The position numbers and the translations under genes are program-made. DNA of 64,000 nucleotides from an uncultured Methanosarcinales archaeon (GTDB lineage Archaea > Nanobdellota > Nanobdellia > Woesearchaeales > UBA12501). The stretch is from positions 69,583 to 133,582 of the forward strand of contig CAYFJX010000004.1 of assembly GCA_964343705.1 (NCBI GenBank), written 5' to 3'. The notes beneath the pieces are model-generated. The model worked only from the letters and a program-made list of their open reading frames with translations. It was not told the DNA's origin and ran no database searches. Below, piece by piece: positions 908 through 59,623 of the stretch (the first letter of the stretch is position 1; each line of letters opens with the position of its first letter).

Positions 908-1951
908 TTATAACAGGTGTAGGGCGGTTACAATCTCTTGTGTGTCTTGTGTGTATTTTAGTGCTGCTGCCCTTGCTTGATCTACCTTGTCTTGGCCAAA
1001 ATTAATGTCATGAACGCGTTGTGCAGCATTAGTGAGTGCTGCCACACGCTGAGCCAAGTGAGATGTGTACGCTTCATCTGCCTTTGTTGTGCTTGGTTCA
1101 CCTAATTTTTCAATCTTATCTGCAAGCTCTTCAGCATATGCAGTTAATGCGACTGCATGTTGGAAGTGGGTGGATTCTAAGAGCTTTCTCAAACCTGGAA
1201 GTACATGATCATGTGCATATACCAGATCTTCGACGCCTATGTCATCTCCCATGCGAATACAGAAGGCATTGTTACCAGATGAACCAAGATTATATCTTTG
1301 GCCGTTACCTCCAGATCTATAAACTGGTTTCTGAAAACCATTGCCTGTAACTTCATTTAAGATGTAGCTAAACAGTACAGTGGCGTCTTCATAGCTGCTG
1401 TTTTGGCTGTGTAATCTTGGTCTTAGTGAGTAGGGCAATCCAGGTCTTCCACATTGAGTTACTGCCATTACTCCTAACAGCAGATTGTCAGGAAGCTTGT
1501 CTTGATTAAGGTCATGCTGTGACAAGCCTGCTCCTAAATTAAGCTTTTTTTCATCTCCTCGCATAAGTGTAGCATACACACGTAGTTCTGTTTCACCTCG
1601 TTCTTGTAATGGCGCACCACGTGTTTCTCGCGCATGGTCAAGATCAACACGCTTTCTTTTAAATGTGCGAAGTCTTCTTTTTTGCTTTGGAGTTGGTTGC
1701 AGGGCGAACATACCAACAGAATGTCTTCTTGAACCATTCTTATGTGACGCATAAAATGGGATGCTATCCTCATCAACAAGTCCTTGCTCAATAAGAAATG
1801 CGCGTACTCTATCCACTCCTTTTTTGGTGAGTGTAAGATGGCCAGGTTTGTCTTCTTTATGTATCTCACAAAGATGTCCAAGATCTCCTTGAAAAATCCT
1901 TTGATGAGGTGTCTCTAATTCTGGAACACGCTCAAGGTTCAGGTCTGCCAT
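908..1951 (-). CDS. Hypothetical protein, paralog A of a tandem pair (unknown family)
   Basis: 347 aa. Its N-terminus MADLNLERVPELETPHQRIFQGD closely matches the neighbouring ORF (MPDISFERVPELETPHQRIYKGD), and further similarity runs along the length (ELRVYA, NPY). Confidence 0.55.
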   Translation of the reverse strand: MADLNLERVPELETPHQRIFQGDLGHLCEIHKEDKPGHLTLTKKGVDRVRAFLIEQGLVDEDSIPFYASHKNGSRRHSVGMFALQPTPKQKRRLRTFKRKRVDLDHARETRGAPLQERGETELRVYATLMRGDEKKLNLGAGLSQHDLNQDKLPDNLLLGVMAVTQCGRPGLPYSLRPRLHSQNSSYEDATVLFSYILNEVTGNGFQKPVYRSGGNGQRYNLGSSGNNAFCIRMGDDIGVEDLVYAHDHVLPGLRKLLESTHFQHAVALTAYAEELADKIEKLGEPSTTKADEAYTSHLAQRVAALTNAAQRVHDINFGQDKVDQARAAALKYTQDTQEIVTALHLL

Positions 1952-2000
1952 GAAACAAAAGAAAAAAGAAGGTAGTTAAAAAGTTTGTGCATAGTGTTAA

Positions 2001-3071
2001 TTATATTCCCTGCAGCATCTGTGTGATGTCTTCGTGTTGTCGAGCATAGGTAAAAGCTGCTTCCATTGCTTTTACTTGTTCGTTCATGCCAAAATGTTCG
2101 TAGGCATTTGCATTCATGGTTGTACGGACAGTGTCTAACTTACCATCAAGATCTGCTCGCGCTTCATCGCTTAGCGGAGCTCTCACATTAAAAACATTAT
2201 CAGGTGTTAACTCTTTTAGTGCTTTTTGTACCTGTTGATTGTACCCTCTCAATGCAACAGCTTTTTGAAACTCTGCAGATCCCATAAGTTTTTGCAGACT
2301 CACAACATACGTGTCTCGTGCATTCACCAGTTTTTCAGCAGTTGTCTCGTCAGTAAGCCGTAAAAATAAGCCTTTGCCTGATGCAGGATTGAGTCGGTAG
2401 CGTTGATTATCTCTTCTTTGATCAAGCCAGGTGATTATAAAATCATTATTTCCTGTAATTTCTTCTTGGATTGCATGAAGCATTTGAGAAGCAAATGGTT
2501 CTCCTTCTTCATGCCGGTGTGCTTGGTCAATTGAGTAGGGGTTTGTTCCTCCACCAAAAACCAGCAAAGCAGAGACAGCAAGGTACAAGTTTTCAGGCAA
2601 GTTTCCTTTTGTTGGTCTGAGACGAGTGGGTAAACTAACTGAGTCACCTGATCCTTGTACAGGGTATGCATACACTCGTAATTCTACCATGCCTTTTTCA
2701 AGGGGTGGGAGTTCATCATTATAACGCCATACATCAAGATCTCTTCCTCTGAGTTCTGTTTTCATACGGCGTGCAATATCTTCATATCCTTGACGTAGTG
2801 CTGGTTGTGGGACAAGCACATAAGACCCTATCATCTTCCTTTCTCTAGCAACTTCTCGTGCTTCAAAAACAGGCTGGCTACCTTCAGGAACAAGGCCTTG
2901 GCCTGCAAGAAATGCAGCTATGTCTTCAAGTGCGTCATTTCCATGATCATTTTCATTCAACCAATCAAGTCCACCATGGGCATAGAACAGCAACTCTTCA
3001 AAGTCACCCTTGTATATTCGTTGATGTGGTGTTTCCAGTTCTGGAACACGCTCAAAAGAAATGTCTGGCAT
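2001..3071 (-). CDS. Hypothetical protein, paralog B of a tandem pair (unknown family)
   Basis: 356 aa. It shares its N-terminal motif and several internal motifs with 908..1951. Confidence 0.55.
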   Translation of the reverse strand: MPDISFERVPELETPHQRIYKGDFEELLFYAHGGLDWLNENDHGNDALEDIAAFLAGQGLVPEGSQPVFEAREVARERKMIGSYVLVPQPALRQGYEDIARRMKTELRGRDLDVWRYNDELPPLEKGMVELRVYAYPVQGSGDSVSLPTRLRPTKGNLPENLYLAVSALLVFGGGTNPYSIDQAHRHEEGEPFASQMLHAIQEEITGNNDFIITWLDQRRDNQRYRLNPASGKGLFLRLTDETTAEKLVNARDTYVVSLQKLMGSAEFQKAVALRGYNQQVQKALKELTPDNVFNVRAPLSDEARADLDGKLDTVRTTMNANAYEHFGMNEQVKAMEAAFTYARQHEDITQMLQGI

Positions 3072-4026: not shown

Positions 4027-5304
4027 TTAATCAACAAATTCTATCCCAAGCTCAGTCTCAATCTCTTTTTTCCGTCGAGTACCAACCTTGCGCTCAGGCC
4101 CAAAGATCTGTGAGGACTTAACACCAGTCACAATAATCAATGTTCTCACAATGTTTTGTAGGTCGTCATTGATCAAGGCTCCCCAGATTATTTTTGCATC
4201 TTCATCAAGTCGTTCAGATACTTTTTCAACAATCTTACGAGCTTCATCTAGTGTCATGTCTGGACCACCAGCAACATTGATCAGTGCTCCATTAGCACCG
4301 CTAATGTCAACATCAAGAAGTGGGTTGGTGATTGCTTTTTCAACTGATTCAAGCGCACGGTTCTCAGTGTCACTTTCCCCTACACCAATCATTGCAACTC
4401 CGCCATTACCCATGATTGCTCGAATGTCTGCAAAGTCAAGGTTTACAAGACCAGCTTTAGTTACTAATTCTGCAACTCCTTTTACTGCGTTGGTAAGAAT
4501 TTCATCTGCAACTTTAAATGATGTATGTAGTGGCAGGTCTGGTGCTAATTCCAGAAGTTTGTCGTTAGGAATAACAATCAGTGTGTCAACAGTGTTTTCA
4601 AGTTTTTCAAGTCCAATCACTGCGTTTTCATATCGTCGTTGTCCTTCCATTGCAAATGGCATGGTCACAATTCCCACTGTGAGTGAGCCAAGTTTTTTAG
4701 CTATTTCTGCGATAACTGGTGCTGAACCTGTTCCAGTTCCCCCACCAAGACCGCATGTAATAAAGATCATATCAGATTCGCGGAGCATTTCTTTAAGTTC
4801 TGCCTCGCTTTCACGAGCAGCGTCTTCTCCAATTTTAGGTATGCTTCCTGCACCCATTCCTCGTGTAATATCCTTGCCAATAAGCAATTTCTTATCAGCA
4901 GTGGTGTACAAAAGATCTTGTGCATCAGTGTTGATTGCAATTGTTTCAGCACCGCGAATACCAACTTCAGCCATTCTGTTGACTGTGTTGTTTCCACCAC
5001 CACCACAGCCAATCACTTTGATCTTAGCTCGTTGGTGTTTGAGCATTTCTTCAAGTTCAAGATCTGCTGATCGTTGCTTTTCTGGTGTAATCTGTTTTGG
5101 AACAGGTGGAGCAGCTGGTTTTACCTCTTCTTTTGGCTTTATAGTAAAGCTAGAAGGTTGTGAAGGAGGCGTCGGCGTACTTGCTGGAGGAGTGTAGAAA
5201 GAACTACCTCCTGTACTACTTGGTGTTGTCGTTGTATTGCTTGTGCTTCCAAATGGTTTGTTAGATTCTTGATTAGGTTGTTGTTGAGAATGATTACTAT
5301 CCAT
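4027..5304 (-). CDS. ftsZ: Cell division GTPase FtsZ with an N-terminal Ser/Thr/Pro-rich low-complexity extension
   Basis: Carries the GGGTGTG tubulin signature and the [19 protein letters not shown]-terminal motif. The ORF is open to 5469, but the start at 5304 (MDSNHSQ) is preferred: it has a ggtgaggtg SD-like sequence 6 nt upstream and a tttatata box further upstream, and the longer ORF would overlap the FKBP gene. Confidence 0.85.
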
Positions 5305-5422
5305 GCACCTCACCCCAGGTTTTTCTCTTTTATTACTGTTAGTCCCCTCTTTTTTTAAACTTTCCAGTGTAAACGGAGACCGAGCTGGTATATAAAGTTT
5401 GTTGTGGTAGAAAAGAATGAAC

Positions 5423-6157
5423 TTATTGTTGTGGTGATGGCTCTGTAGGTTGCTCTGCTGGTTTTTCACTCTTTTTTTCTTCTTCCTTTTTCTGATCTTT
5501 GTCAGTTACAATCTTGACACCTTTAATTTCTTTGATAAGCTCGCTTGCTTTCTTACCAAAACCTTCTTCAAGTGTCTTATGTAACTCAGCAGGAATGTTT
5601 CCGCCCAGTTTTAGTTGAGCAATGCCATCTTTAATAGATACTTTAATGCCTTTTTGGTTAAATGTCAAATCCGCCAGTGCTTGTATTTTTTCTTCTGGCT
5701 TGTCAACCATGCGTTTTACATCAACGTCATAGATAACATCTCTTCCGGACAGAGGATGATTAAGATCAACAAGAATTCGGCCACCAGACACACTCTTAAT
5801 GGTTGCCATGTGATTATCAATATTTACCTGCAGCCCAGGTACTGGCTGAATATTTTGTTCTTTGAACTTTCTCAAGGGGATCATTTGTACAAGTTTTGCT
5901 GATTTCTTACCAAATGCTTGTTCAGGGGGCAGTTCAACACTATGCTTGCCGATTGCTTTTCCTTCAAGTTCCTCGTCAAGACCTTTGATTAAATGACCTT
6001 CACCAAGACAGATAACAACTGGGCCGTATACTTGGTTTGACTGAGCAATGCCTTCTTTTTCAGCTACAGCTTTGCTTGTGGTGTCAAAAACCATACCGCC
6101 TTCTTTGACTTTGCCAGTGTAATCAACTTCAATGAAGTCTCCTTTCTTGAGTGTCAT
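5423..6157 (-). CDS. FKBP-type peptidyl-prolyl cis-trans isomerase (long archaeal SlyD-like type) with a Lys/Glu-rich tail
   Basis: Contains [27 protein letters not shown] and [13 protein letters not shown], typical of archaeal FKBP. Confidence 0.75.
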
Positions 6158-6209
6158 ACTGCTTTGGAGAAAGAGGGGATATATAAAGGTATTTGCTGGG
6201 AGAGGGTCT

Positions 6210-6626
6210 TTAAACAGTAAGAACTTTTCTAAGCTCAGGAGTTGAGTGTACCATAATCACCGATTGTTGTTTTAACAGTGGCTCATTTGACCATATTTCT
6301 GCCTTAAGCTTCAATGCTAAGGCAAAGAAAGGAGCATCTTTTTCATCGGGTGAGATATCTTTTCCTTCTTCTTTCATATCACTGAAAAAAGATAAAGACT
6401 TTTTATCAACAAAGAGATCAAGTAATGTGAATATTTTTTCTAGTTCGTTTTCGTTTTTTAGTTTTGTGTATTTTAGGAGGTCATTTGCATTATTTTGTAA
6501 TTCTTCAAAAGCATATTCAGGTGTAAACAACTCTAACCCTAGCTGGTTTGCATTAACAATAATTGATCTTACTGGATTTTCCCTAAAAAATGAGAACAGG
6601 ATATTTGTATCTACAACGAGTCTCAT
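6210..6626 (-). CDS. vapC: PIN-domain ribonuclease toxin (VapC-like)
   Basis: Begins MRLVVDTNILFSFF (PIN N-terminal Asp motif), is 138 aa, and abuts the upstream RHH gene. Confidence 0.7.
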   Translation of the reverse strand: MRLVVDTNILFSFFRENPVRSIIVNANQLGLELFTPEYAFEELQNNANDLLKYTKLKNENELEKIFTLLDLFVDKKSLSFFSDMKEEGKDISPDEKDAPFFALALKLKAEIWSNEPLLKQQSVIMVHSTPELRKVLTV

Positions 6627-6866
6627 TTACCAACCTTGTGTTTTGTATTTTTTGAGCATGCTCTTTTTTGCTTTCTCTCCAAGTTTTAGGCATTGTTCTT
6701 CTGTAAGCTCAGAATTTTCAAGCATGCTGTCAAGTTTTTTGAGAACCATTGCTCGTTTTATTTTTTCTGATAGAAATCCTCTAATTACTTCAGACCAGTT
6801 CAATTCAGGAAGTTTGTCCATCTTATTCTTGAGTTCGTTGGGGATTGCTATAGTTAAATTTGGCAT
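6627..6866 (-). CDS. vapB: Ribbon-helix-helix / CopG-like antitoxin (VapB-like)
   Basis: 79 aa. Begins MPNLTIAIPNELKNKMDKL, an RHH beta-strand start, and sits directly upstream of the PIN gene with no gap. Confidence 0.6.
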   Translation of the reverse strand: MPNLTIAIPNELKNKMDKLPELNWSEVIRGFLSEKIKRAMVLKKLDSMLENSELTEEQCLKLGEKAKKSMLKKYKTQGW

Positions 6867-6943
6867 AAGGCACCTCCACAGTTCTCTGTGTAAATCGTGT
6901 AAGTTGTGAATGTATTTAAATGTTTTGTTTTCTGGGGGGTGTC

Positions 6944-7708
6944 TTACATGCTTGGACCAACAGGTGCTGCAACACGCTCCTCAAGTCCTTGTTCTTGAGG
7001 CTTTTCTGTTGGTTTTCGTTCACCCTTAGGTTGTCTTATTGCAACAAGAGTATTGCCTTTTGGTGTTACTTGGAAGATCGGTTCGTCAGTTATTCCTGTT
7101 ACTTCTAATGCCTGGGCGTATTGTTCATAAATTCCAAGTTTTCTATATGCTTCTCCATAGGTTGTTTGTTCTACAAGCCCATTGTCAATAGCGTATTGCA
7201 TACTTGGACACTCAAGATGCGCAATGTGATACGCATTCCATGGATTAAGAAGGTCATCTGGTGTATAAGTGGTGGCCTTGTTTTCTTTGATTTCAGACAG
7301 AATCATGGTGAACAACCTCCCTTCATATTTTTCTTGATCATACTTTCGCTTTCTCCGCTTTAAGTCAAAGCCACACCACCAACCTGCAACCTGTGCGTCA
7401 TAGCGTTTTAGTGTTTCTCCATCAGGGTTTGGGGTGTATAAGGGGTTTTGAATGATTGATCCTTCAAACAAACCACGATTTGTTCTGTTATCAAAAAATC
7501 GTCGCCAAACTCCCCTGTCAAAAGTCAAATCGGAATCCTGTAAGAATTTAGAGAAGAGTATTATTCTCCCAACAGTCGAGAGAAAGAAATTTAACATTGG
7601 ACGTACAATTCTACTTCTAGCAAGGCCCTCAATAAATTTTTCCTGCTTCTCGTCGCGGTACTTGTACTCCAAATCTTTCTTTGGTTCTGGTACTGGTTTC
7701 TCGTCCAT
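6944..7708 (-). CDS. Hypothetical protein
   Basis: 254-aa ORF with no recognisable motifs. It is transcribed divergently from the palindromic element. Confidence 0.4.
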   Translation of the reverse strand: MDEKPVPEPKKDLEYKYRDEKQEKFIEGLARSRIVRPMLNFFLSTVGRIILFSKFLQDSDLTFDRGVWRRFFDNRTNRGLFEGSIIQNPLYTPNPDGETLKRYDAQVAGWWCGFDLKRRKRKYDQEKYEGRLFTMILSEIKENKATTYTPDDLLNPWNAYHIAHLECPSMQYAIDNGLVEQTTYGEAYRKLGIYEQYAQALEVTGITDEPIFQVTPKGNTLVAIRQPKGERKPTEKPQEQGLEERVAAPVGPSM

Positions 7709-7744
7709 ATCATGCTGGTTTTCTGGATGATTTATATCTTTTTT

Positions 7745-7912
7745 GGGGTGTGTCCCGAATCTTGCTTTTTGTGCAGGAGGGATAGCACTGCGAAGGTTAA
7801 CGCTCGCATCCGCTCGCTGATTCTACGTCGGCACCCCTGCATAAATCGGGGTGCCTCCGAACAGACTTCAAGGCAGTGCTATCCCTCAGAAAGACTCTCG
7901 GGACATACCCTC
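7745..7912. repeat. GC-rich nested palindromic element (REP-B family, full copy) filling a divergent intergenic region
   Basis: Three nested inverted-repeat pairs: ggggtgtgtcccga(7745)/tcgggacatacccc(7898), gggatagcactgc(7779)/gcagtgctatccc(7873) and ggcacccc(7830)/ggggtgcc(7848). The right half recurs at 55503..55570. Confidence 0.7.
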
Positions 7913-7955
7913 TTTTTTGGCAAGGCTTAAATACATCCACCCTACACGCTCAATC

Positions 7956-8894
7956 ATGACACGCGTTGTAGTTGAAGGACGGCTTGCCACTCCAAGTATG
8001 CATCACGGCATGCCAGTTTGGCGAGAAGCTGGCACACACCCTATCACTTTGGCAAAAGTTCCAGTAACTGGTGACAAGCTTGAAGAATCAGTTCTGTTGC
8101 GTCCTGATTATGTGCCGCGCGGGGTTGAGCGTGAGCTTGTACAATTAGACTCGTTTCGTCGTGGCAGAACCATTGATGTCTTCCTTGATGAACCTATAGA
8201 GATTGGTGGCAAACCGTATACCATCCTTAATTTCAAAGGTGTTGGTGCAGATGCAGATCAACCAATGGCTATTCGCCGTGATGATTGGTGGGTTGGCGAA
8301 CTCGGTCGAGGTCATTGGGGTTGGAATGAAGAGCAAGGCGAGCGAATGTGGGGAGCAATGAAAACAGACAGAGCTGAAAAAGCATTTTCCTCAACAGTTC
8401 TTGCGAACTTGGCAGCTCCGGAAATCGGTTATGTTGCTTGCAATCCAATTCCAGAAAAAATTTTACCATTACTACACCCTTCTGAACCCTTAAGTCAGAT
8501 TGTTCGAGCATACAATACTAACATGCGCCATGATGATCCCTTTGCATACACGCAGTTGAAAGATGCAGGTGTTCAATTTGATCCTGTGGAAGTTGCAGAG
8601 CAAGACGCTGCTATGTTCAACAATATTAGGAAACTTGCAGAGCAAGGAAAAATGTTAATTGTTGGTGGAAGTATTGCAGGAAACCGCATGCTTACTGGCG
8701 AGTTTATTGATCGCCAAAATTATTGGGTTGAAAGCGCTGCAGGAAAGCCAGGACAATACTTGCAAACACACATGTGGCGATTTATCGGCGAGACTATTGA
8801 TACATCACAAAAAGCGCTTGGTCCTGAAGCTGAAAAAGTCTACAATGCTCACTTAAGAAAAAAAGTTACCTTCTCAGTCAGTCATATGTTGTGA
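7956..8894 (+). CDS. Hypothetical protein
   Basis: The ORF is open from 7851, but that stretch lies inside the repeat element. The start is called at MTRVVVEGRL (7956). Confidence 0.45.
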   Translation: MTRVVVEGRLATPSMHHGMPVWREAGTHPITLAKVPVTGDKLEESVLLRPDYVPRGVERELVQLDSFRRGRTIDVFLDEPIEIGGKPYTILNFKGVGADADQPMAIRRDDWWVGELGRGHWGWNEEQGERMWGAMKTDRAEKAFSSTVLANLAAPEIGYVACNPIPEKILPLLHPSEPLSQIVRAYNTNMRHDDPFAYTQLKDAGVQFDPVEVAEQDAAMFNNIRKLAEQGKMLIVGGSIAGNRMLTGEFIDRQNYWVESAAGKPGQYLQTHMWRFIGETIDTSQKALGPEAEKVYNAHLRKKVTFSVSHML

Positions 8895-8895
8895 T

Positions 8896-9630
8896 TTAGT
8901 CTTTTGACGTCATGGGTTTGGCAATCTTCCATAACAACTCAAAATGTTTTCTATATGACTCAGCAAGTTGTTTGTTCTTGATAAAAATAATCATGAGTGG
9001 TTCCCAGATCTCAATACAGACTGTATCACCAAAAATAAATGTGGGGGTTGGACTAAAATATCTTTTTGGAATTGTTCTATACTCCAAGTGGGGTTCGTCA
9101 TACACAAATGCTCCTTCCCAAGTTATGATTCTTTCATTTACCCCTGCTTCTTTTTCTTTTCGAAATACTTGTTTCATTTCAATGCTAAACTTTTTTTCAA
9201 ACTCTTTTTCATCAACACCAAAGATAAGCAGCTCTTTTCCTGTTTTTACAATTTCATTGCTTAATCGTCTAAAACCTTCAATTCCTCTGAATACTTCTAC
9301 GGTGCCTTCATGTTTTTCGTGTTTTTGTAAATTAATTAGTTTATTAAAGACTGTTTTGAGGTTTTCTTTTTTGCTTTCAAGCAGTTCAAAGAGTTTGTCT
9401 GGGTGTGCTGCGGTGTACACATGGGTGCCATGTTCTATTATGTCACTCACTAATCCTTTATTGCCCAGTTTTTCAAGAAAATCGTAGATTGTTGTTCTGT
9501 GCAGGTTTGTTGCTCGTTTTATGTTGTGAACATTACTTGGTCCAAGCTTGAGCAAGGCGAGGTATACTTTGGTCTCGCCAGTGCTTAGTCCAAGCTCATT
9601 GAGCACCTCATTGAGGGCATTCTCCATCAT
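8896..9630 (-). CDS. TrmB-family transcriptional regulator (HTH + C-terminal effector domain)
   Basis: N-terminal wHTH (LSTGETKVYLALLKLGPSNVHNIKRATNLHRTTIYDFLEKL), 244 aa. A truncated paralog lies at 23097..23399. Confidence 0.65.
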   Translation of the reverse strand: MMENALNEVLNELGLSTGETKVYLALLKLGPSNVHNIKRATNLHRTTIYDFLEKLGNKGLVSDIIEHGTHVYTAAHPDKLFELLESKKENLKTVFNKLINLQKHEKHEGTVEVFRGIEGFRRLSNEIVKTGKELLIFGVDEKEFEKKFSIEMKQVFRKEKEAGVNERIITWEGAFVYDEPHLEYRTIPKRYFSPTPTFIFGDTVCIEIWEPLMIIFIKNKQLAESYRKHFELLWKIAKPMTSKD

Positions 9631-9761
9631 TTTCTTGGGGTAAATAAGCCTTATTTATATGTTTTTCGTTTGTTGTCGGAAAAACGACAACTAATGTTTA
9701 AGTAGTTGATTGCCTCTTATTTGGTGTATATTTAGTTTATTATTGGAAAAAAGAGGTTATT

Positions 9762-10718
9762 ATGGCGCTTGAACGACTTATTTTGTGGAAACCCCTTCAA
9801 AAAACAACATTGGTCATGTATGCACTGGTGTTTTTTCTAGCCTTGCCTGCACCTAAACTAGCAACATTACTGCTGTTTGGTATTGTGGCGTTGTGGAGTC
9901 GAATTCCTGCAATGATGACTATGTTCACTCGTGACGTTGAAGTTGTTGACTTCTTTACTGTTATTATCGCAATCAATATGGGTGGCTTGGTTGCTGCATT
10001 ATTTGGCTCCTTACTTATTTTGTTTTCACGAATATTCGGGCCACTAGAAGATCTAGATTATACTATTAAGGAAAGTGTCTGCTTTTTTGTCGGTGCATTC
10101 TTTTCCTTAGCTGTGCATAACTTGTTTGGGAATGTGATGTGGACTATGTTTTCGTTCACGTTTATTAGGTATGGGTTTTATCCGGTGCTTGACTTGGTAA
10201 CAACACCGGGGAAAGTGTGGTTGACAGTAATAATTCTTGTGGTAAGTGCTCCTGTTGCCGTAATTTCAAACTTGTTGTTAGTGAACTTGTTTGGTGATGC
10301 GCTAGATGCGATTTTTGCAAAAGGGGCAGTACTAAGTTGGGAACTGTTGTTGTTTGTTACTGCTGTTATTGCTGGATTCTTTTTTGTGAGCAAATTTTTG
10401 TTTCGCGAAGAGCAGAAACGTGTAGAGTCTTATGGGGGTGATTTTGCAGAAAGCATGGCCAGTATTCCAGAACCGCATGAAGCATTGTTTAGTATGTTTA
10501 CCATTCCAGACGTCAACCCCTTCTTGTACGTCACACCAAATCTGTTTAAGGGATTCATGACAGTGATACTATTTATCCTTGTTCTTGTTGCAGGTTTTCA
10601 AACAGGTGTTACAGTCAACTGGGTGCAGATGGTATTCTTGCTGGTTAGTATCTATGCTGTTTTGTCGTCTGTAATCTGGGCGTTGAACAAAACAGTGGTT
10701 AAGAAAACATTGTATTAG
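9762..10718 (+). CDS. Polytopic membrane protein (about 8 TM helices), unknown function
   Basis: Hydrophobic helices throughout. No catalytic motifs recognised. Confidence 0.5.
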   Translation: MALERLILWKPLQKTTLVMYALVFFLALPAPKLATLLLFGIVALWSRIPAMMTMFTRDVEVVDFFTVIIAINMGGLVAALFGSLLILFSRIFGPLEDLDYTIKESVCFFVGAFFSLAVHNLFGNVMWTMFSFTFIRYGFYPVLDLVTTPGKVWLTVIILVVSAPVAVISNLLLVNLFGDALDAIFAKGAVLSWELLLFVTAVIAGFFFVSKFLFREEQKRVESYGGDFAESMASIPEPHEALFSMFTIPDVNPFLYVTPNLFKGFMTVILFILVLVAGFQTGVTVNWVQMVFLLVSIYAVLSSVIWALNKTVVKKTLY

Positions 10719-16583: not shown

Positions 16584-16711
16584 CCCTCCATAGCTCAATT
16601 GGTAGAGCGCAGGGCTGTAGATAAACTCACCCACCGACTAGGCATATAGCCATGAATGAAAGTGGGACAGCCGATACCTTGAGGTTCCCGGTTCGAGTCC
16701 GGGTGGGGGGA
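16584..16711 (+). tRNA. tRNA-Tyr (anticodon GTA) with a 55-nt canonical intron (37/38) at 16621..16675
   Basis: Acceptor ccctcca/tgggggg (C1:G72). D arm gctc-aattggta-gagc. Anticodon stem caggg/ccttg with loop ctGTAg|intron|a. T arm cccgg-ttcgagt-ccggg. Discriminator A. Confidence 0.75.
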
Positions 16712-38748: not shown

Positions 38749-38806
38749 TCAAAATAATTAAAAATCTTATTTTTCTTTTTCTGACTTTTTGTAGGTGATC
38801 TGACTT

Positions 38807-38927
38807 CAGCAGATTCTACAAAATCAAAGAACATTTCAACTGCACAGATTAATTATTATTTAATCCGCCCTGAAGGGCGGTTAAAACTGTGCAATATAAG
38901 ATTTGATTAAGAAAAAGCTCAGGCTTT
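38807..38927 (-). repeat. REP-A intergenic element, copy 1 (reverse orientation; divergent inner hairpin ccgccc-tgaa-gggcgg)
   Basis: Aligns with the copies at 44728, 48681 and 52591. Shares the outer tgcacag...ctgtgca stem and the flanks ctttgattttgtagaat / cctgagc. Confidence 0.7.
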
Positions 38928-38957
38928 ACCTGATTTTACCTAATTCTCGTTATTTTC

Positions 38958-38972
38958 ATAAACTTTTTAAAG
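38958..38972 (+). promoter_or_regulatory. Putative BRE/TATA promoter (aaactttttaaag) for the 39014 gene
   Basis: The aaacttt(t)taaa motif recurs upstream of the 53591 and 53936 genes. Confidence 0.4.
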
Positions 38973-44665: not shown

Positions 44666-44727
44666 GGGTTGTTGGGGTTATTTGGGGTTTTTATAGTTTG
44701 TTATTGGGTGTGCTTTGGGTAAAATTA

Positions 44728-44862
44728 GTTTCAGCTGGGGCTGTTTCAAAACCATATCTGACATTGCACAGTTTTAACCGGGCCGTGTTCCGGCCCGGAT
44801 TTAACGGCAAAGCCGTTCTATCTGTGCGTTTGAAATACTCTTTGACTTTGAAGAACTTGCAG
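44728..44862 (+). repeat. REP-A intergenic element, copy 2
   Basis: gtttcagctggggctgtttcaaaa...tgcacagttttaaccgggccgtgttccggcccgg...ctgtgcg...ctttgactttgaagaacttgc. Confidence 0.7.
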
Positions 44863-48446: not shown

Positions 48447-48680
48447 TTTTTTTCTTTTTTTCTTTACTTTTCGTATAGTTTTCGAGCTATTTAAGTTCTG
48501 GGTCCACAGATGTCCAGTGTCCAGTGGGTGTTTCGGTTTCGTCGGAAAATTTTCAAAACAGTAGTAGAAGCTTTCTAAAAGATGTCTAGTAAAAGAAATC
48601 GAAGATGTTCTGTTAAAATTCGTAAAGTATCCGGAAAAAAGCCTGTCCAGTAGAAAAACAAAAATGAGTGTGCAAAGTTA

Positions 48681-48812
48681 GTTTCAGCCTGAGCTGTTTC
48701 AAAAACCTTGCCTAACATTGCACAGTTGTAACCGGGTCGGGTTCCGACCCGGATTTAAAATTATTAATCTGTGCATTTGAAAATATTCTTTGATTTTGAT
48801 GAATTTGCTGCC
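48681..48812 (+). repeat. REP-A intergenic element, copy 3
   Basis: gtttcagcctgagctgtttcaaaaa...tgcacagttgtaaccgggtcgggttccgacccgg...ctgtgca...ctttgattttgatgaatttgc. Confidence 0.7.
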
Positions 48813-48910
48813 CCTTATTCACCTACAAAACCCCAGATACCCAGTTTGACCTTACTCCCAAACCCTTACCATCACAAACTATAAAAAGGCTGTATCCTAA
48901 AACTAATTTC

Positions 48911-52114: not shown

Positions 52115-52556
52115 AAACAATGAGTTCCAGCTGATCACAATGACAGGCAAAGACTGCTTATTTTGTAAAATAATCAAAGGAGAACTTCCTTGTTCTAAAA
52201 TCTATGAGGATGAACAAACTTTTGCATTCTTAGATATTAGTCCAGTAAATCCAGGGCATACACTTGTTATCCCAAAAGCGCATTGCAAAAATCTTCTAGA
52301 CATGCCAGAAGATGATGCAGGTGCTGTATACAAGACTGCAAAGAAAGTTGCAATTGCAGTTAAAGAAGGTACTGGCGCAGGAGGCGTTACTGTCACCATG
52401 AGTAATGAGAAACCTGCAGGTCAAGTAGTGTGGCACGCGCATGTTCATGTTATTCCTCGGTTTGAAAATGATGGCTTTAAGTTATGGCCAGGCAAGCCGT
52501 ACAAAGAAGGTCAGCAAGAAGAAATGTTAAAGAGAATTAGTGAGAAATTGAATTAA
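52098..52556 (+). CDS. HIT-family hydrolase (histidine triad)
   Basis: Contains CLFCKII, NPGHTLVIPKAH and the triad WHAHVHVIPR. The start may be internal, MTGKD at 52140. Confidence 0.7.
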   Translation: MRTKHKNNEFQLITMTGKDCLFCKIIKGELPCSKIYEDEQTFAFLDISPVNPGHTLVIPKAHCKNLLDMPEDDAGAVYKTAKKVAIAVKEGTGAGGVTVTMSNEKPAGQVVWHAHVHVIPRFENDGFKLWPGKPYKEGQQEEMLKRISEKLN

Positions 52557-52590
52557 AGAGTATTCTAACTTTTTGTAAGTGAGCTAGGAG

Positions 52591-52722
52591 CGGCAAATTC
52601 TACAAAATCAAAGAGAATTTCAACTGCACAGATTGAATAAATTTAAATCCGGGTCGGAACCCGACCCGGTTAAAACTGTGCATGCTTGATATGATTATGA
52701 AACAGTCCAAGCTGAAACTAAC
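52591..52722 (-). repeat. REP-A intergenic element, copy 4 (reverse orientation)
   Basis: The reverse complement reads gtttcagcttggactgtttcataat...tgcacagttttaaccgggtcgggttccgacccgg...ctgtgcag...ctttgattttgtagaatttgc. Confidence 0.7.
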
Positions 52723-52862
52723 TTTGCTCATTGCTCAAAACAGATTTTTTATCCAGATCTTACCTCTTTCTTTGTCCAGGCTGAAACTGATTCTGCTTTA
52801 TTACTGTTGCTTAAGCACAAAATATATAAAACTAAGACACATTACTCATGTAAGGTGATAGC

Positions 52863-54994: not shown

Positions 54995-55502
54995 TTTTTT
55001 TTATTCTCTTTCCACTTCTTTTTTTTCTTAGTAGTAATCTTCAAAATCGTAGTATGTGTTGTCGTCTAATTCGTGTTCTGCAAGCTCTTCATCAAACTCG
55101 TAATCTATTAGCTTGTCAACACGTGGATGGGCAATCCATTGTTCCCACTCTTCACGTCGCATTGGCATAGTTTACACCCCCATGTAATGCCTTAATTAGG
55201 GTGAATAAAATATAATAAAGTGATGTATATATGGTATAACCAAGGTTTCCTAAACTTTAGGTGATGGTCCTTTTTACTTCCTCAATAAATATCAATCTTT
55301 CGGAACAGACACCGCTATGAAGTGATGGTTGACCTTACCTCGCAGAATTCTTGCTGTAGAACGCTTAATTCGCTTTTTGTTGTTTGAAATTTTTGCGAAC
55401 TTATCTTCAACTCTTTTGGCTCAATTTGGAGAGTGTTACACATTGCTTTTGTAATGAAGCAACATTTTGTTATATGGTCTGCATACCCTCAACATTTTGG
55501 GA

Positions 55503-55570
55503 ATCGGGGTGCCTCCGAACAGACTTCAAGGCAGTGCTACCCCTCAGAAAGACTCTTGGGACACACCCCT
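55503..55570. repeat. REP-B element, half copy (matches 7845..7912 with 3 mismatches in 68 nt)
   Basis: atcggggtgcctccgaacagacttcaaggcagtgctacccctcagaaagactcttgggacacacccct. Internal ggggtg/cacccc inverted repeat. Confidence 0.7.
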
Positions 55571-55695: not shown

Positions 55696-55845
55696 ATGTC
55701 ACAAAAGCAATATATCATAACAAAAAAGATAGCCAAACAAGGCGATAAGGCAGTTATCTGTATTCCTGCTTTGCTTCAGGAAGAATTAAAACCTTCAACA
55801 GTTGTGAAAGTAACTATTGACGTAATTAAGGAGGCAGGGCAATGA
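55696..55845 (+). CDS. AbrB/SpoVT-like small DNA-binding protein (49 aa), first gene of a three-gene operon
   Basis: MSQKQYIITKKIAKQGDKAVICIPALLQEELKPSTVVKVTIDVIKEAGQ is a swapped-hairpin-like pattern. Its stop overlaps the next ATG (ATGA). It is too short for the ORF track. Confidence 0.45.
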   Translation: MSQKQYIITKKIAKQGDKAVICIPALLQEELKPSTVVKVTIDVIKEAGQ

Positions 55846-56897
55846 ACGATAATACAAACGACACTTCATTAGTTCCTGTTGATCCTTGGCAAGGAATTTT
55901 GGGACAAGCTTATGATGGTAGTATGGAAAAAGTTTTAAGTGCACATTTTCGCAATGGTTTAGAAGAACTTACTGTTGACGCAAGCACATTAGAGCGACAA
56001 AAATCAAAGCTGGAAGAGTCACGCAGAAAAGATGCTGAAATGCATAAAGTTGCTGTGCTAACTGAAAAAGCAGATTTCAAAGAAAAAAATAGATTGCTTG
56101 CACGATTAACTCGTAAAGTAGTTTTTATAGAACCTGATCATAAACCTTCACTTGAAACGTCTGTTTATGAAAAGGCAGTTGAAGTTGGGCAAACATTGAC
56201 AGAATATCTTGATAATCTTAGAAAGTTTGCTTCACAGTTTTCTGTGCTGGGAGAAAGATATCAAAAACTCTGTGAACAACAAACTGAATTGGAACTGAGA
56301 AGAGAACAGATAGAACGGCGTGCTTCAACATATGAGAATGAAGAAAGATTAACAGCCGATTTTATTGGCAAAGTAACAGGTTATTCTAGTTTAGCAGATG
56401 CTGATCAGGATGCTTTGGCTCAATCTGTCAGAGAAGCGACTAATGGTGTTGATATTAGTGACGAAAATGTAAGAGAAATTTTTGTTCAACAGTTGAAAAG
56501 AGGACAGTTTACTTTGCGTCAAACCCATATTACTGACCAAGCTGATCATGAAGAGATAAGTATACGGCTTGCTTCTGTTTCCAGACAGTTGGAGGGAGTA
56601 AATAAAGATGCTGGAAGGTTGTGGGATCTATATAATCCTGCAAGGACCGAAGCTGTTCATTTAAGTGTAACATATCAGGAATTAAGTTCTGCTGCGGAAA
56701 CAGGAACAGCAATTTATGGTGTTGCACAAATGCTTGGGTCAGCAAGAGAATTATGTGAATCTGCCAGAGAAATGCAAGATGCCTTAGAAGCTGCAGTAGA
56801 AGGGCAGTTGGAAGTATTAAGTGCGTTTAGGGGAGTAAATGATGGAAGAGGATCTTATCAATTATCAACTGGAGACACAAGGAGGGGTGAAGAGTAA
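55842..56897 (+). CDS. Coiled-coil hypothetical protein (351 aa)
   Basis: Long heptad-rich central region. No catalytic motifs. Confidence 0.45.
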   Translation: MNDNTNDTSLVPVDPWQGILGQAYDGSMEKVLSAHFRNGLEELTVDASTLERQKSKLEESRRKDAEMHKVAVLTEKADFKEKNRLLARLTRKVVFIEPDHKPSLETSVYEKAVEVGQTLTEYLDNLRKFASQFSVLGERYQKLCEQQTELELRREQIERRASTYENEERLTADFIGKVTGYSSLADADQDALAQSVREATNGVDISDENVREIFVQQLKRGQFTLRQTHITDQADHEEISIRLASVSRQLEGVNKDAGRLWDLYNPARTEAVHLSVTYQELSSAAETGTAIYGVAQMLGSARELCESAREMQDALEAAVEGQLEVLSAFRGVNDGRGSYQLSTGDTRRGEE

Positions 56898-56898
56898 A

Positions 56899-57912
56899 AT
56901 GGATGAAGTAAGATTTCCTACGATTGTTAGTGTGATTAGTGAAAAGTTTGGTGCTTATACCAAGGCTTTAACTGAAGCGCAGAACTTAGCTGGCAGAGAC
57001 GAGTTAGATGCTGATGAACGAAGAAGATTTGATGAGTTGATGCAACATTTAAGAAAAGATGAAGCGACTGCTGGTTTGCTTTCCTCTGAGCAGCGTGTTG
57101 GTCTTGATGCTGTTTTTGATGCTCATGTACAATTATCAAATGTTCCTTTTCCTGCTTGTATCAGTAAGATCACCCAAAACTATGTTGTTTTGAATAATAT
57201 TAGGCCTGTTGATGCTGATGATACTGTTCTTTGGAGTCATCCTAAGCTGTATATTCCTAAAAACATTATTAAGGATGCGAATGGCAATCACGTTAATAAA
57301 ACCCCTTATGAGTGGGCTGTTTTTTTTGAACAACAAGAGCAAAATGGCTGGTTTTTACCAAGTCCTGCAGACACTTGTAACATTCTGGCTGTTTTGTTTA
57401 AAAATAGGGAGGATAAGGAAGTAAGAAGAGTGTTTATGCAGTATAAAGACCAAGGCTATGGTTCTGGCCTGCACGCTCAGAATGGCCTTGTTGATTTTGG
57501 TGTAAGGCAATTTATTCATTACCCTAATGCTGCTGATTTTGGTAAGTCGGGAAGTGTTAATGCTGGCAGGAGAAGAACTGCTTTAAGTTTTGACAAGTTT
57601 GTTTTGCGAAGTGAGAGGTTAGAGGATGCCTTGCGTGTTCCTGAAAAAGCAAGGTATGTTCGGCAGTGGAGTTGTTTAAAAGATCCTTCTGTTTTGGTTG
57701 AGATTGGAGAGGAGTATGGCAATCCTGCTAGGTTGTGGTTTCCTTGGAACAGAAAGAATAGTACAGGATATAACAAGAAAATGCTGGCCTGGGTTGGTCA
57801 CATCGCCGATATCTTCACACTTTATGCCAGCGGCAATCTTTCCTTCTATTATGCTACTCGTGGGGTACTTCAGGCGCCGCAGGCGCGCAAACGAAAAAAT
57901 AGTTCCACCTGA
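56899..57912 (+). CDS. Hypothetical protein (338 aa) with Cys...His...Asp order suggestive of a papain/transglutaminase-like fold (speculative)
   Basis: PADTCNILAV ... WVGHIADIF ... D. The ATG is 2 nt after the stop of the previous gene. Confidence 0.4.
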   Translation: MDEVRFPTIVSVISEKFGAYTKALTEAQNLAGRDELDADERRRFDELMQHLRKDEATAGLLSSEQRVGLDAVFDAHVQLSNVPFPACISKITQNYVVLNNIRPVDADDTVLWSHPKLYIPKNIIKDANGNHVNKTPYEWAVFFEQQEQNGWFLPSPADTCNILAVLFKNREDKEVRRVFMQYKDQGYGSGLHAQNGLVDFGVRQFIHYPNAADFGKSGSVNAGRRRTALSFDKFVLRSERLEDALRVPEKARYVRQWSCLKDPSVLVEIGEEYGNPARLWFPWNRKNSTGYNKKMLAWVGHIADIFTLYASGNLSFYYATRGVLQAPQARKRKNSST

Positions 57913-58397
57913 AATAAAGGTTAGGTAAATCTTTATAAACACCAGCAACTTCTTTATTTTTGTCCTCATTGCTCTACTTCTTTGGTGGAACGGCATGGGC
58001 TCTACACGTCTCTTTGCTAGCGCCTCTTATTCAAGAGGACATAAAATTCAACCACAACAGCAAATGCCTGAAGTGGTGGTGCTAGAAACAGCAAGGAGGC
58101 TACTTAAGGGCGGCCTGGCTCGGTTGCAGCAACAATAACTTCAACCTTAATGCCAACAACAATCTTAACAGCAATAATACTGCTCGTGGAATAGCCCTAC
58201 CTCAGCGAGGACTTTTCTTTAAACTATTTAAGAGAGTTCTCTTCCCAATCACTAAAGCTAGTTTTCAGTTCAATAACATCATTTTCGAGATTTTTCAGTC
58301 CATCCAAAAGCTCTTTATAGTCCATACATGTCAGGTATAAATTAGAACTTTTAAAATTTTCTTCTATTTATGTTATCTAGGGTAGCTACCTGCTAGA

Positions 58398-58485
58398 ATC
58401 AGCTTGCCGCTCAAGCTCTAACTTCTTAGCGATTGCAGCAGAATTATTACTTAGGTTGAAAGCATGTGTGATCTCGTCAGCAAGG
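58398..58485. repeat. 88-bp exact direct repeat of the rps7 3'-terminal coding sequence (second copy at 59036..59123)
   Basis: Identical 88-mer atcagcttgccgctcaag...ctcgtcagcaagg. Flanking codons at both copies encode SSR-stop using different codons. Confidence 0.8.
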
Positions 58486-58492
58486 TACTTGA

Positions 58493-58615
58493 CTATAGCT
58501 TACCTATTGCTTCAAGAATCTTTTCATGTCCTTTGACTAAACTCATAAATCGATCTAGTTCATGTGATACAATTTTATATGCTTCTTTATCTTTTAAATT
58601 CTCTGATTTTGCCAT
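58493..58615 (-). CDS. Small ORF (40 aa), possible antitoxin partner of the Fic/Doc gene
   Basis: MAKSENLKDKEAYKIVSHELDRFMSLVKGHEKILEAIGKL. Overlaps the 3' end of the Doc gene by 29 nt. Confidence 0.3.
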   Translation of the reverse strand: MAKSENLKDKEAYKIVSHELDRFMSLVKGHEKILEAIGKL

Positions 58616-58979
58616 GTTTTAACCACTCTTTTATTTCACTATCCTGATAGTATCTTTCTCTGATGCCAAGCATAACGCGTGCCTGTTTTGGGTTGTTTTT
58701 TACTGCAAAACGCGCCTTGTTTTTACGTAAAAATTCTTTTGTTACAATAAATGCAGTTCTTCGATTTCCGCTAGCAAAAGGGTGTTCTCTGATGAGACCC
58801 TTGCAAAGCACTACTGCTTTATCATACATGTCTCCTCTTTCTTGTTTGCACAAATTAATTACTTTGTTTAATTTTGATTTATTTAAAACTTTAGGGGAAT
58901 CTGCTTTTTTAGTTTTCAAAAAAGCGATTGCAAGTAGATTATATTCAATAATTCGTTCTGGTGTTGGGTAATAAAGCAT
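58587..58979 (-). CDS. doc: Fic/Doc-family toxin (death-on-curing)
   Basis: The Fic motif HPFxxGNKRTA is present as HPFASGNRRTAF. 130 aa. Its own TATA (tttataaa) lies about 27 nt upstream. Confidence 0.7.
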   Translation of the reverse strand: MLYYPTPERIIEYNLLAIAFLKTKKADSPKVLNKSKLNKVINLCKQERGDMYDKAVVLCKGLIREHPFASGNRRTAFIVTKEFLRKNKARFAVKNNPKQARVMLGIRERYYQDSEIKEWLKHGKIREFKR

Positions 58980-59023: not shown

Positions 59024-59623
59024 TTATCGACTACTATCAGCTTGCCGCTCAAGCTCTAACTTCTTAGCGATTGCAGCAGAATTATTACTTAGGTTGAAAG
59101 CATGTGTGATCTCGTCAGCAAGGCAGTCAACCATTGACTTTTTTCCATTGAAACTTTTGTGGAATGAACCTTGTGCCATAACACGTAGTGCAAAATCAAT
59201 GCGTCGTTGTGGTGAGCACTCAACTGCCTTTGGGTATCGAGCTCCACCATATTCAATGGTGATGATCTCTTCTCGTGGTGCAGCGTTTTCAATTGCTTTT
59301 ACCAGTGCTTCAACAGGGTTCTTGCCTGTTTTTTGCTCAACTTTGATAAGTGCTTTTTTGAGAATGTCTGCAGCAGTAGCATACTTGCCGGTGATACGGC
59401 CAGAGCTTTTGAAGTGTTTTTTGCTCTTGTGACCAGGTACCATTAGTTTGTTGATAAGTCGTTCAACAATAAATGACTTTGATTTGTGGAATCTGCTTCC
59501 TGCGTATTTTCCAGAACTCTTTGGTACAATACGTGGTTCTAAACAGATGTAATCTTTAAGCCCAAGGTCTTCTACTACGATATCTGTGGTAGGCCACTTG
59601 TTGAATGCTAATACTTCAGTCAT
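59024..59623 (-). CDS. rps7: 30S ribosomal protein S7 (uS7)
   Basis: 199 aa ending KAVECSPQRRIDFALRVMAQG. Typical archaeal uS7. Confidence 0.85.
   Translation of the reverse strand: MTEVLAFNKWPTTDIVVEDLGLKDYICLEPRIVPKSSGKYAGSRFHKSKSFIVERLINKLMVPGHKSKKHFKSSGRITGKYATAADILKKALIKVEQKTGKNPVEALVKAIENAAPREEIITIEYGGARYPKAVECSPQRRIDFALRVMAQGSFHKSFNGKKSMVDCLADEITHAFNLSNNSAAIAKKLELERQADSSR

Follow-up and report, generated by a model that had tools for sequence, protein, structure and literature searches.

The window, by which we mean the whole stretch of 64,000 nucleotides analysed here, is archaeal, with genes for FtsZ, Spt5, SecE, the ribosomal proteins L11 and S7 and a tRNA. The tRNA is a match to the Rfam model at 16584-16711 on the plus strand, and its span of 128 nt suggests the presence of an intron; no tRNA was detected in the window by ARAGORN. 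A 247-nt spacer (7709-7955) separates two divergent genes, 6944-7708 on the minus strand and 7956-8894 on the plus strand, which encode proteins of 254 and 312 amino acids, respectively, that contain no Pfam domain. Homologues of the right-hand gene are rare, the sole named example being from a Micrarchaeota MAG, and the organism is therefore probably an archaeon of DPANN type. The spacer houses a 165-bp nested palindrome at 7746-7910, with 37 nt of spacer remaining to its left and 45 nt to its right.

Alignment of the 60 nt upstream of 19 start codons revealed a local promoter consensus in which a purine-rich BRE is followed by a TTTATAAAT-like TATA box ending ∼22-24 nt before the ATG, a distance indicating that the mRNAs of this organism are mostly leaderless. 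The regular form of this promoter, (A/G)AAAG-N-TTTATAAAT, precedes at least 11 genes (835 -, 3165 +, 6157 -, 7708 -, 7956 +, 9630 -, 59623 -, 60023 + and others). An exception is the gene at 55696, encoding a 49-residue protein, where the TATA box is ∼45 nt upstream and a GAGGT Shine-Dalgarno-like motif is present. The BRE/TATA promoters of both genes that flank the palindrome sit in the parts of the spacer outside it, and the element is positioned exactly between these two back-to-back core promoters. The features of the locus, and the second copy at 55.5 kb, are as follows.

7731-7738, minus strand: TATA box of the left gene (6944-7708, minus strand), from the promoter consensus and the fixed distance to the ATG in 11 window genes
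7737-7745, no strand assigned: left copy of the putative TSD, TCTTTTTTG, the reverse complement of which is the BRE of the left gene's promoter
7746-7910, no strand assigned: full-length element, putative MITE, from k=127 contig ends, simulation and the outer inverted repeat
7746-7758, plus strand: left TIR, GGGTGTGTCCCGA, from inverted-repeat and TIR motif searches
7777-7887, no strand assigned: conserved core, with closing stem 7777-7791/7873-7887 and inner hairpin 7830-7837/7848-7855
7898-7910, minus strand: right TIR, reverse complement GGGTATGTCCCGA, 12 of 13 positions matching, from inverted-repeat and TIR motif searches
7911-7919, no strand assigned: right copy of the putative TSD, TCTTTTTTG, from a direct-repeat search
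7926-7933, plus strand: TATA box of the right gene (7956-8894, plus strand), from the promoter consensus and the fixed distance to the ATG
55499-55568, plus strand: second, apparently internally deleted copy, comprising the left-end GGG and the right 67 nt of the element

Anatomy of the palindrome and its flanks

An inverted-repeat search identified three pairs of arms. The outer arms (7746-7758/7898-7910) are 13 nt long and match at 92% of positions, while the inner closing arms (7777-7791/7873-7887, 15 nt) and the innermost arms (7830-7837/7848-7855, 8 nt, enclosing the loop TGCATAAATC at 7838-7847) match perfectly. The repeats are nested but do not have one common centre. The earlier note on this DNA had described a 165-bp nested palindrome, which the search bears out at 7746-7910. 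It had also reported three concentric repeats of 14, 13 and 8 bp; those of 13 and 8 bp were recovered, but the longest measures 15 nt and there is no single shared centre. The claim that the element fills the entire spacer is not correct, as the 37 and 45 nt that remain hold the BRE/TATA promoters.

The note's description of a GC-rich element in an AT-rich genome agrees with a GC content of 0.556 for the element against 0.398 for the window. The hairpin capability that it had proposed was evident when both strands were folded. The predicted energy of 7740-7920 is -81.4 kcal/mol on the plus strand and -83.8 kcal/mol on the minus strand, compared with ∼-53 and ∼-51 for shuffled sequences (z = -7.1 and -7.25, respectively), and none of 200 shuffles was as stable.

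The 13-bp TIRs, which are identical at 12 of 13 positions and fall within the ∼4-30 bp of MITE TIRs, lie exactly at the two ends of the element. Immediately outside both ends is the 9-bp direct repeat TCTTTTTTG, its two copies identical at all nine positions; the chance of a perfect flanking repeat of this length is ∼1e-5, given the base composition. With one further base at each copy the repeat extends to the 10-nt sequence TCTTTTTTGG (7737-7746 and 7911-7920), which overlaps both ends of the palindrome. Removal of the element and one 9-bp repeat yields ...TTTATATCTTTTTTGGCAAGGCTTAAATA..., a divergent spacer of 73 bp in which the two BREs abut and both BRE/TATA pairs remain intact at the canonical distance. 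For a compact genome such a spacer is a plausible ancestral state. At 165 bp the element is below the 500 bp of a MITE; it has one open frame, and its six frames showed no match among 5.8 billion proteins. No frame is conserved, and a small protein gene was rejected.

Copies in the window, in related assemblies and in a relative

The right half of the element recurs at 55.5 kb, as the earlier note had observed: 7844-7910 matches 55502-55568 with 95.5% identity over 67 nt, or 93% over 75 nt if the alignment is continued to 55575. This copy has the layout CAACATTTT, GGG, AATCGGGG...GGGACACACCC, CTTTATTTT, and is most simply explained as the first 3 nt of the element joined to its right 67 nt by a single internal deletion. 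Its right end matches the TIR at 12 of 13 positions. The flanks, CAACATTTT (left) and CTTTATTTT (right), agree at six of nine positions and have T-rich sequence (...ATTTT) on both sides, consistent with a decayed duplication at a similar T-rich target. The copy is ∼70 nt upstream of the TATA box of the 49-residue protein gene at 55696.

Evidence for a further copy comes from five MEGAHIT assemblies at k=127, independent of one another, whose contigs encode the proteins flanking the element at 7.8 kb (ENA project PRJEB17505; a literature search on this accession found no paper). Both of the contigs that carry the left gene end at the position equivalent to 7871 (7746+125). Of the four that carry the right gene, three start at 7787 and the fourth at 7785, which places the right boundary at 7912 or 7910. 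By blastn and nhmmer the contig ends therefore hold exactly 126 nt of the element in five of the six contigs and 128 nt in the sixth, defining the shared repeat as 7746-7912 in four samples and 7746-7910 in one. Ends of 126 nt are those of a de Bruijn repeat node, because unique flanking sequence extends k-1 bases into the repeat, and the boundaries thus defined coincide with the outer inverted repeat. Simulation showed that an extra copy of 7746-7912 with random flanks generates unitig ends at 7871 and 7787, as observed. In contrast, an empty-site allele gave ends at 7746 and 7911, and an inverted allele at 7749 and 7907, while the window alone, its half copy included, produced no break. As only the added copy fits the contig ends, the samples probably contain one or more additional copies of identical sequence, flanked on each side by other DNA. 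We infer this from the assembly graph, and another replicon of the community could be the carrier.

Searches for additional members or for a mobilizing partner covered several collections. Allowing two mismatches or fewer, the TIR motif has four matches in the window, against 0.33 expected. These are the known ends of the element and one unrelated site, and so there is no autonomous partner within the window. The 64-kb window and ∼190 kb of related loci yielded neither an autonomous IS nor a transposase with these TIRs, and a covariance model of the core, run over the window and ∼190 kb of loci from the same organism and from related ones, more distant relatives included, returned known copies only. 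Exact 22-mer scans of GTDB genomes and JGI metagenome contigs gave no matches, and nor did the pattern of two blocks common to the window and the relative described below in JGI metagenome contigs. The two-block pattern did match an Oscillospiraceae genome and a viral contig, but neither has nhmmer similarity to the element and both matches are compatible with chance. Three further IMG/VR viral scans, one of them with the TIR-pair pattern, returned no matches, and blastn against plasmids and phages was likewise negative. A search for copies annotated as spurious ORFs among 5.8 billion proteins, initially with the open frame and then with the six frames joined, also found none. No copy is present in the ∼10 kb adjoining the window on its left; at the right end the only sequence found is a 2.9-kb contig that ends inside the window, and 62828-63187 is without any record.

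A more distant member of the family is present in a relative. The closest homologue of the right-hand gene (55% identity) is on a JGI contig, L007, whose Spt5, FtsZ and SecE are 96, 92 and 85% identical, respectively, to those of the window, and whose four-fold degenerate sites are 60% identical (125 of 207). Element-like sequence occurs at 786-913 of this contig (nhmmer E = 6e-5), within the 194-nt spacer between SecE and a divergent gene encoding a 283-residue protein. In the window the spacer upstream of SecE is 72 nt and lacks the element, and two extra genes separate SecE from the gene for the 283-residue protein. The presence of the element at SecE on L007 and its absence at SecE in the window show that the family occupies different loci in the two genomes. 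The L007 copy consists of the core only, with no recognizable TIRs or TSD and no frame kept. The rightmost aligned block, the 10-mer CAGAAAGACT, also occurs in the SecE promoter of the window and fits the local BRE consensus, and is thus probably promoter rather than element or homology.

Identity between the two cores is ∼60% (73 identical of ∼120 aligned positions), equal to that of four-fold degenerate sites. RNAalifold of these two sequences identified nine pairs that are kept by double changes, of which the 15-bp stem has three and the inner hairpin five. The stem of the inner hairpin changes from GGCACCCC/GGGGTGCC to GGGAAAAGA/TCTTTTCCC between the species, with conservation of the loop, T(G/A)CATAAAT. 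The consensus fold of the window's minus strand (-29.5 kcal/mol, 26 pairs) is better than that of the plus strand (-19.5 kcal/mol, 21 pairs), and contains four G-U pairs (one on the plus strand) at positions where the plus strand would have A-C mismatches. The retention of nine compensated pairs despite identity at the neutral level indicates that pairing is under constraint. With two sequences to compare, the cause may be the element's own propagation, if only intact palindromes are mobilized, a hairpin recognized by a protein, or a function as RNA.

Gene order around the element differs between the two genomes, both at 908-3071 of the window compared with 758-953 of L007, and at 7956-10718 compared with 4288-7142. 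The genes found between SecE and the gene for the 283-residue protein in the window only (908-1951 and 2001-3071) are paralogous. The gene for the 312-residue protein is upstream of TrmB in the window, and on L007 is downstream of a gene encoding a 318/319-residue protein. As gene order is rearranged at both element loci, the repeats may mark rearrangement breakpoints.

Nature of the element

The element at 7746-7910 is probably a MITE, a non-coding, non-autonomous DNA transposon. In its size, TIRs, flanking repeats, intergenic site and stable hairpin it conforms to the architecture published for prokaryotic MITEs (PMC10969869), and MITEs are reported to be dense in some DPANN archaea (PMC11602168). 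A transposase encoded at another locus of the genome would recognize the 13-bp TIRs, excise or copy the element, and insert it at a T-rich target through a 9-bp staggered cut, the repair of which would give the flanking duplication. The present copy would have entered the gap separating the two leaderless promoters, which are arranged back to back, and in a compact genome such a site would tolerate insertion without harm. The copy at 55.5 kb would be an older, internally deleted relic, and that of L007 a diverged member of the family at another divergent-promoter spacer. Of the earlier proposals the remnant of a foldback mobile element came closest; with its TIRs, perfect TSD and at least one inferred identical copy, however, the element looks intact rather than remnant. 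The counter-reading in the same note, a MITE-type repeat in several copies with TSDs, is largely what the evidence shows.

The element departs from a typical MITE in being GC-rich, in having no known partner IS and in its co-varying inner stems. MITEs are typically AT-rich (PMC10969869), and a GC content of 0.56, compared with 0.40 for the window, is a point against this assignment. So too are the absence of recognizable TIRs and TSD from the L007 copy, and the nine double substitutions, which a decaying selfish repeat would not keep unless the hairpins serve its own propagation. Like SM1-SM4 of Sulfolobus solfataricus and the MITEs of DPANN archaea, the element is short, non-coding and intergenic, carries TIRs and flanking direct repeats, probably occurs in several copies per genome and would presumably be mobilized in trans by an IS transposase (PMC10969869, PMC11602168). 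Unlike these, it has no known cognate IS, is unrelated in sequence to the searched collections, is GC-rich for its host and displays a three-level palindrome of unusual complexity, with inner stems that co-vary between species. The sequence is new to the searched collections, while the MITE is a kind of element that is already known. If the element is a MITE, it is evidence of a transposon family that is, or was until recently, active in the small and compact genome of an uncultured archaeon; it also accounts for the breaks in short-read assemblies of the organism at this site, and may mark rearrangement breakpoints.

If the element has an effect on its host, the closest functional analogues would be the Correia (NEMIS) elements of Neisseria and the ERIC sequences of enterobacteria. 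These are also ∼100-200 bp, form long imperfect hairpins, often lie just upstream of genes and can affect the expression of their neighbours. They are, however, bacterial and have no sequence in common with the present element, and Correia elements carry sigma-70 promoters and an IHF site and duplicate TA, in contrast to the 9-bp duplication seen here. A search inside the element for outward promoters of the local archaeal consensus gave none.

The nine pairs kept by double changes in cores that are only ∼60% identical, together with the conserved loop, raise the question of whether the element is instead a gene for a structured non-coding RNA. Such an RNA, of ∼110-165 nt, would comprise a closing stem, a three-way junction and the conserved-loop hairpin, and would belong to a family of few copies transcribed between divergent promoters. 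The better fold of the minus strand and its G-U pairs hint at a single-stranded, strand-specific structure; in addition, the element is GC-rich in an AT-rich genome and is followed on the plus strand by a run of six T residues. The minus strand, which the G-U pairs favour, nevertheless has no downstream oligo-T terminator in the window, and no BRE/TATA of the local consensus is located at the right distance upstream of the core. Rfam 15 contained no match for the element, either at the gathering score over the window or at E <= 10 over 7600-8050, and ARAGORN found nothing. The covariation derives from two sequences, and a DNA palindrome would require pairing to the same extent; the half copy at 55.5 kb lacks the 5' arm of every stem, and an RNA gene leaves the perfect 9-bp flanking duplication unaccounted for. 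A stand-alone RNA gene is therefore unlikely. The structured RNA proposed in the earlier note is favoured by the compensation of the stems in the relative, but it has no Rfam match, neither a promoter nor a terminator of its own was evident, and it leaves the duplication unexplained.

A further possibility, to which we also attach a low probability, is that the MITE carries a functional folded nucleic acid, the ∼110-nt core at 7777-7887. The core could be a small RNA of the minus strand or a hairpin recognized by a protein, and would have been retained by selection in two or more species of an uncultured archaeal lineage that probably belongs to DPANN. Its repeated placement between back-to-back leaderless promoters could allow it to insulate them from each other or to couple them. 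Should this compensated core have a function, it would represent a new structured element of archaea, linked to divergent promoters.

A variable, compensated stem beneath a conserved loop is also the pattern of a hairpin recognized by a protein, and the tolerance of G-T pairs is strand-asymmetric. Both features would suit a single-strand mobile repeat that depends on its hairpins, either an IS200/IS605-derived PATE or a REP-like sequence, moved by a Y1 (HUH) transposase that reads conserved hairpins rather than terminal repeats. IS200/IS605 elements are common in archaea. REP/BIME sequences with RAYT, and IS200/IS605 PATEs, resemble the element in being extragenic palindromes with stems that stay compensated, in their case because a protein recognizes the folded strand. 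They have neither TIRs nor TSDs, however, whereas the present element has both. REPs are 20-40 bp, the hairpins of the element are central and not subterminal, and no Y1 transposase (TnpA), TnpB or RAYT gene was seen nearby. An origin of this kind is thus very improbable.

Least probable of all is regulation in cis, in which a dimeric regulator would bind the palindrome as an operator or insulator and co-regulate the divergent pair together with the small-regulator operon at 55696. The element is palindromic, and its three known copies all occupy intergenic DNA close to promoters, a short distance upstream of BRE/TATA boxes, but 165 bp with three nested stems far exceeds the size of an operator. 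The neighbours of the three copies are unrelated, encoding proteins of 254 and 312 residues, a 49-residue protein, and SecE with a 283-residue protein. Insertion rather than local evolution is indicated by the flanking duplication and by the exact identity of copies whose flanks differ. An operator common to the two loci, as suggested in the earlier note, is also at odds with the copy at 55.5 kb, a truncated half that holds only one half of each palindrome, and with the core promoters at 7.8 kb, which are outside the element.

Several other identities were rejected. Motifs reminiscent of 5S rRNA, SRP RNA and RNase P RNA (CCGAAC, GAAGGTTAAC and CAGAAAGAC) are superficial, in the wrong order and without an Rfam score. 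By manual inspection the registers do not fit a K-turn or a bulge-helix-bulge. An archaeal replication origin (ORB boxes, orc1/cdc6) is inconsistent with the GC-rich interior, the flanking genes without Pfam domains and the lack of a GC-skew turn at 7.8 kb.

Other repeats and RNAs in the window

The window contains a full-length match to the Rfam RT-16 RNA (RF03019) at 57965-58108 on the plus strand, which scores 71.7 bits against a gathering score of 50. The motif is named for its association with reverse transcriptase genes; no such gene is evident near this site. Neither of the two ORFs upstream of the RNA (55842-56897 and 56839-57912) has a Pfam domain, and on the downstream side the next gene encodes a Fic/Doc protein. 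The Fic/Doc gene (58587-58979, minus strand) is within a 550-bp segment bracketed by two exact copies (58398-58485 and 59036-59123) of an 88-bp sequence, the 3' end of the gene for ribosomal protein S7 (59024-59623, minus strand). This duplication resembles an att-type repeat, such as would result from an insertion into the rpS7 3' end. The RT-16 RNA and the copy of the element at 55499-55568 are just to the left of this segment, and the region from 55.5 to 59.0 kb may be a mosaic of mobile DNA.

A second family of intergenic repeats, ∼140-200 nt long, is present in four copies, at 38760-38960 (minus strand), 44690-44830 (plus), 48650-48850 (plus) and 52550-52760 (minus), and has no Rfam match at the gathering score. 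Its members begin with TGCACAGTTnTAACC, followed by a GC-rich hairpin, GGGYCGnGTTCCGRCCC, and then GGATTTAA...ATCTGTGCA. In one copy the hairpin is GCCC/GGGC, showing that the stem varies with compensation.
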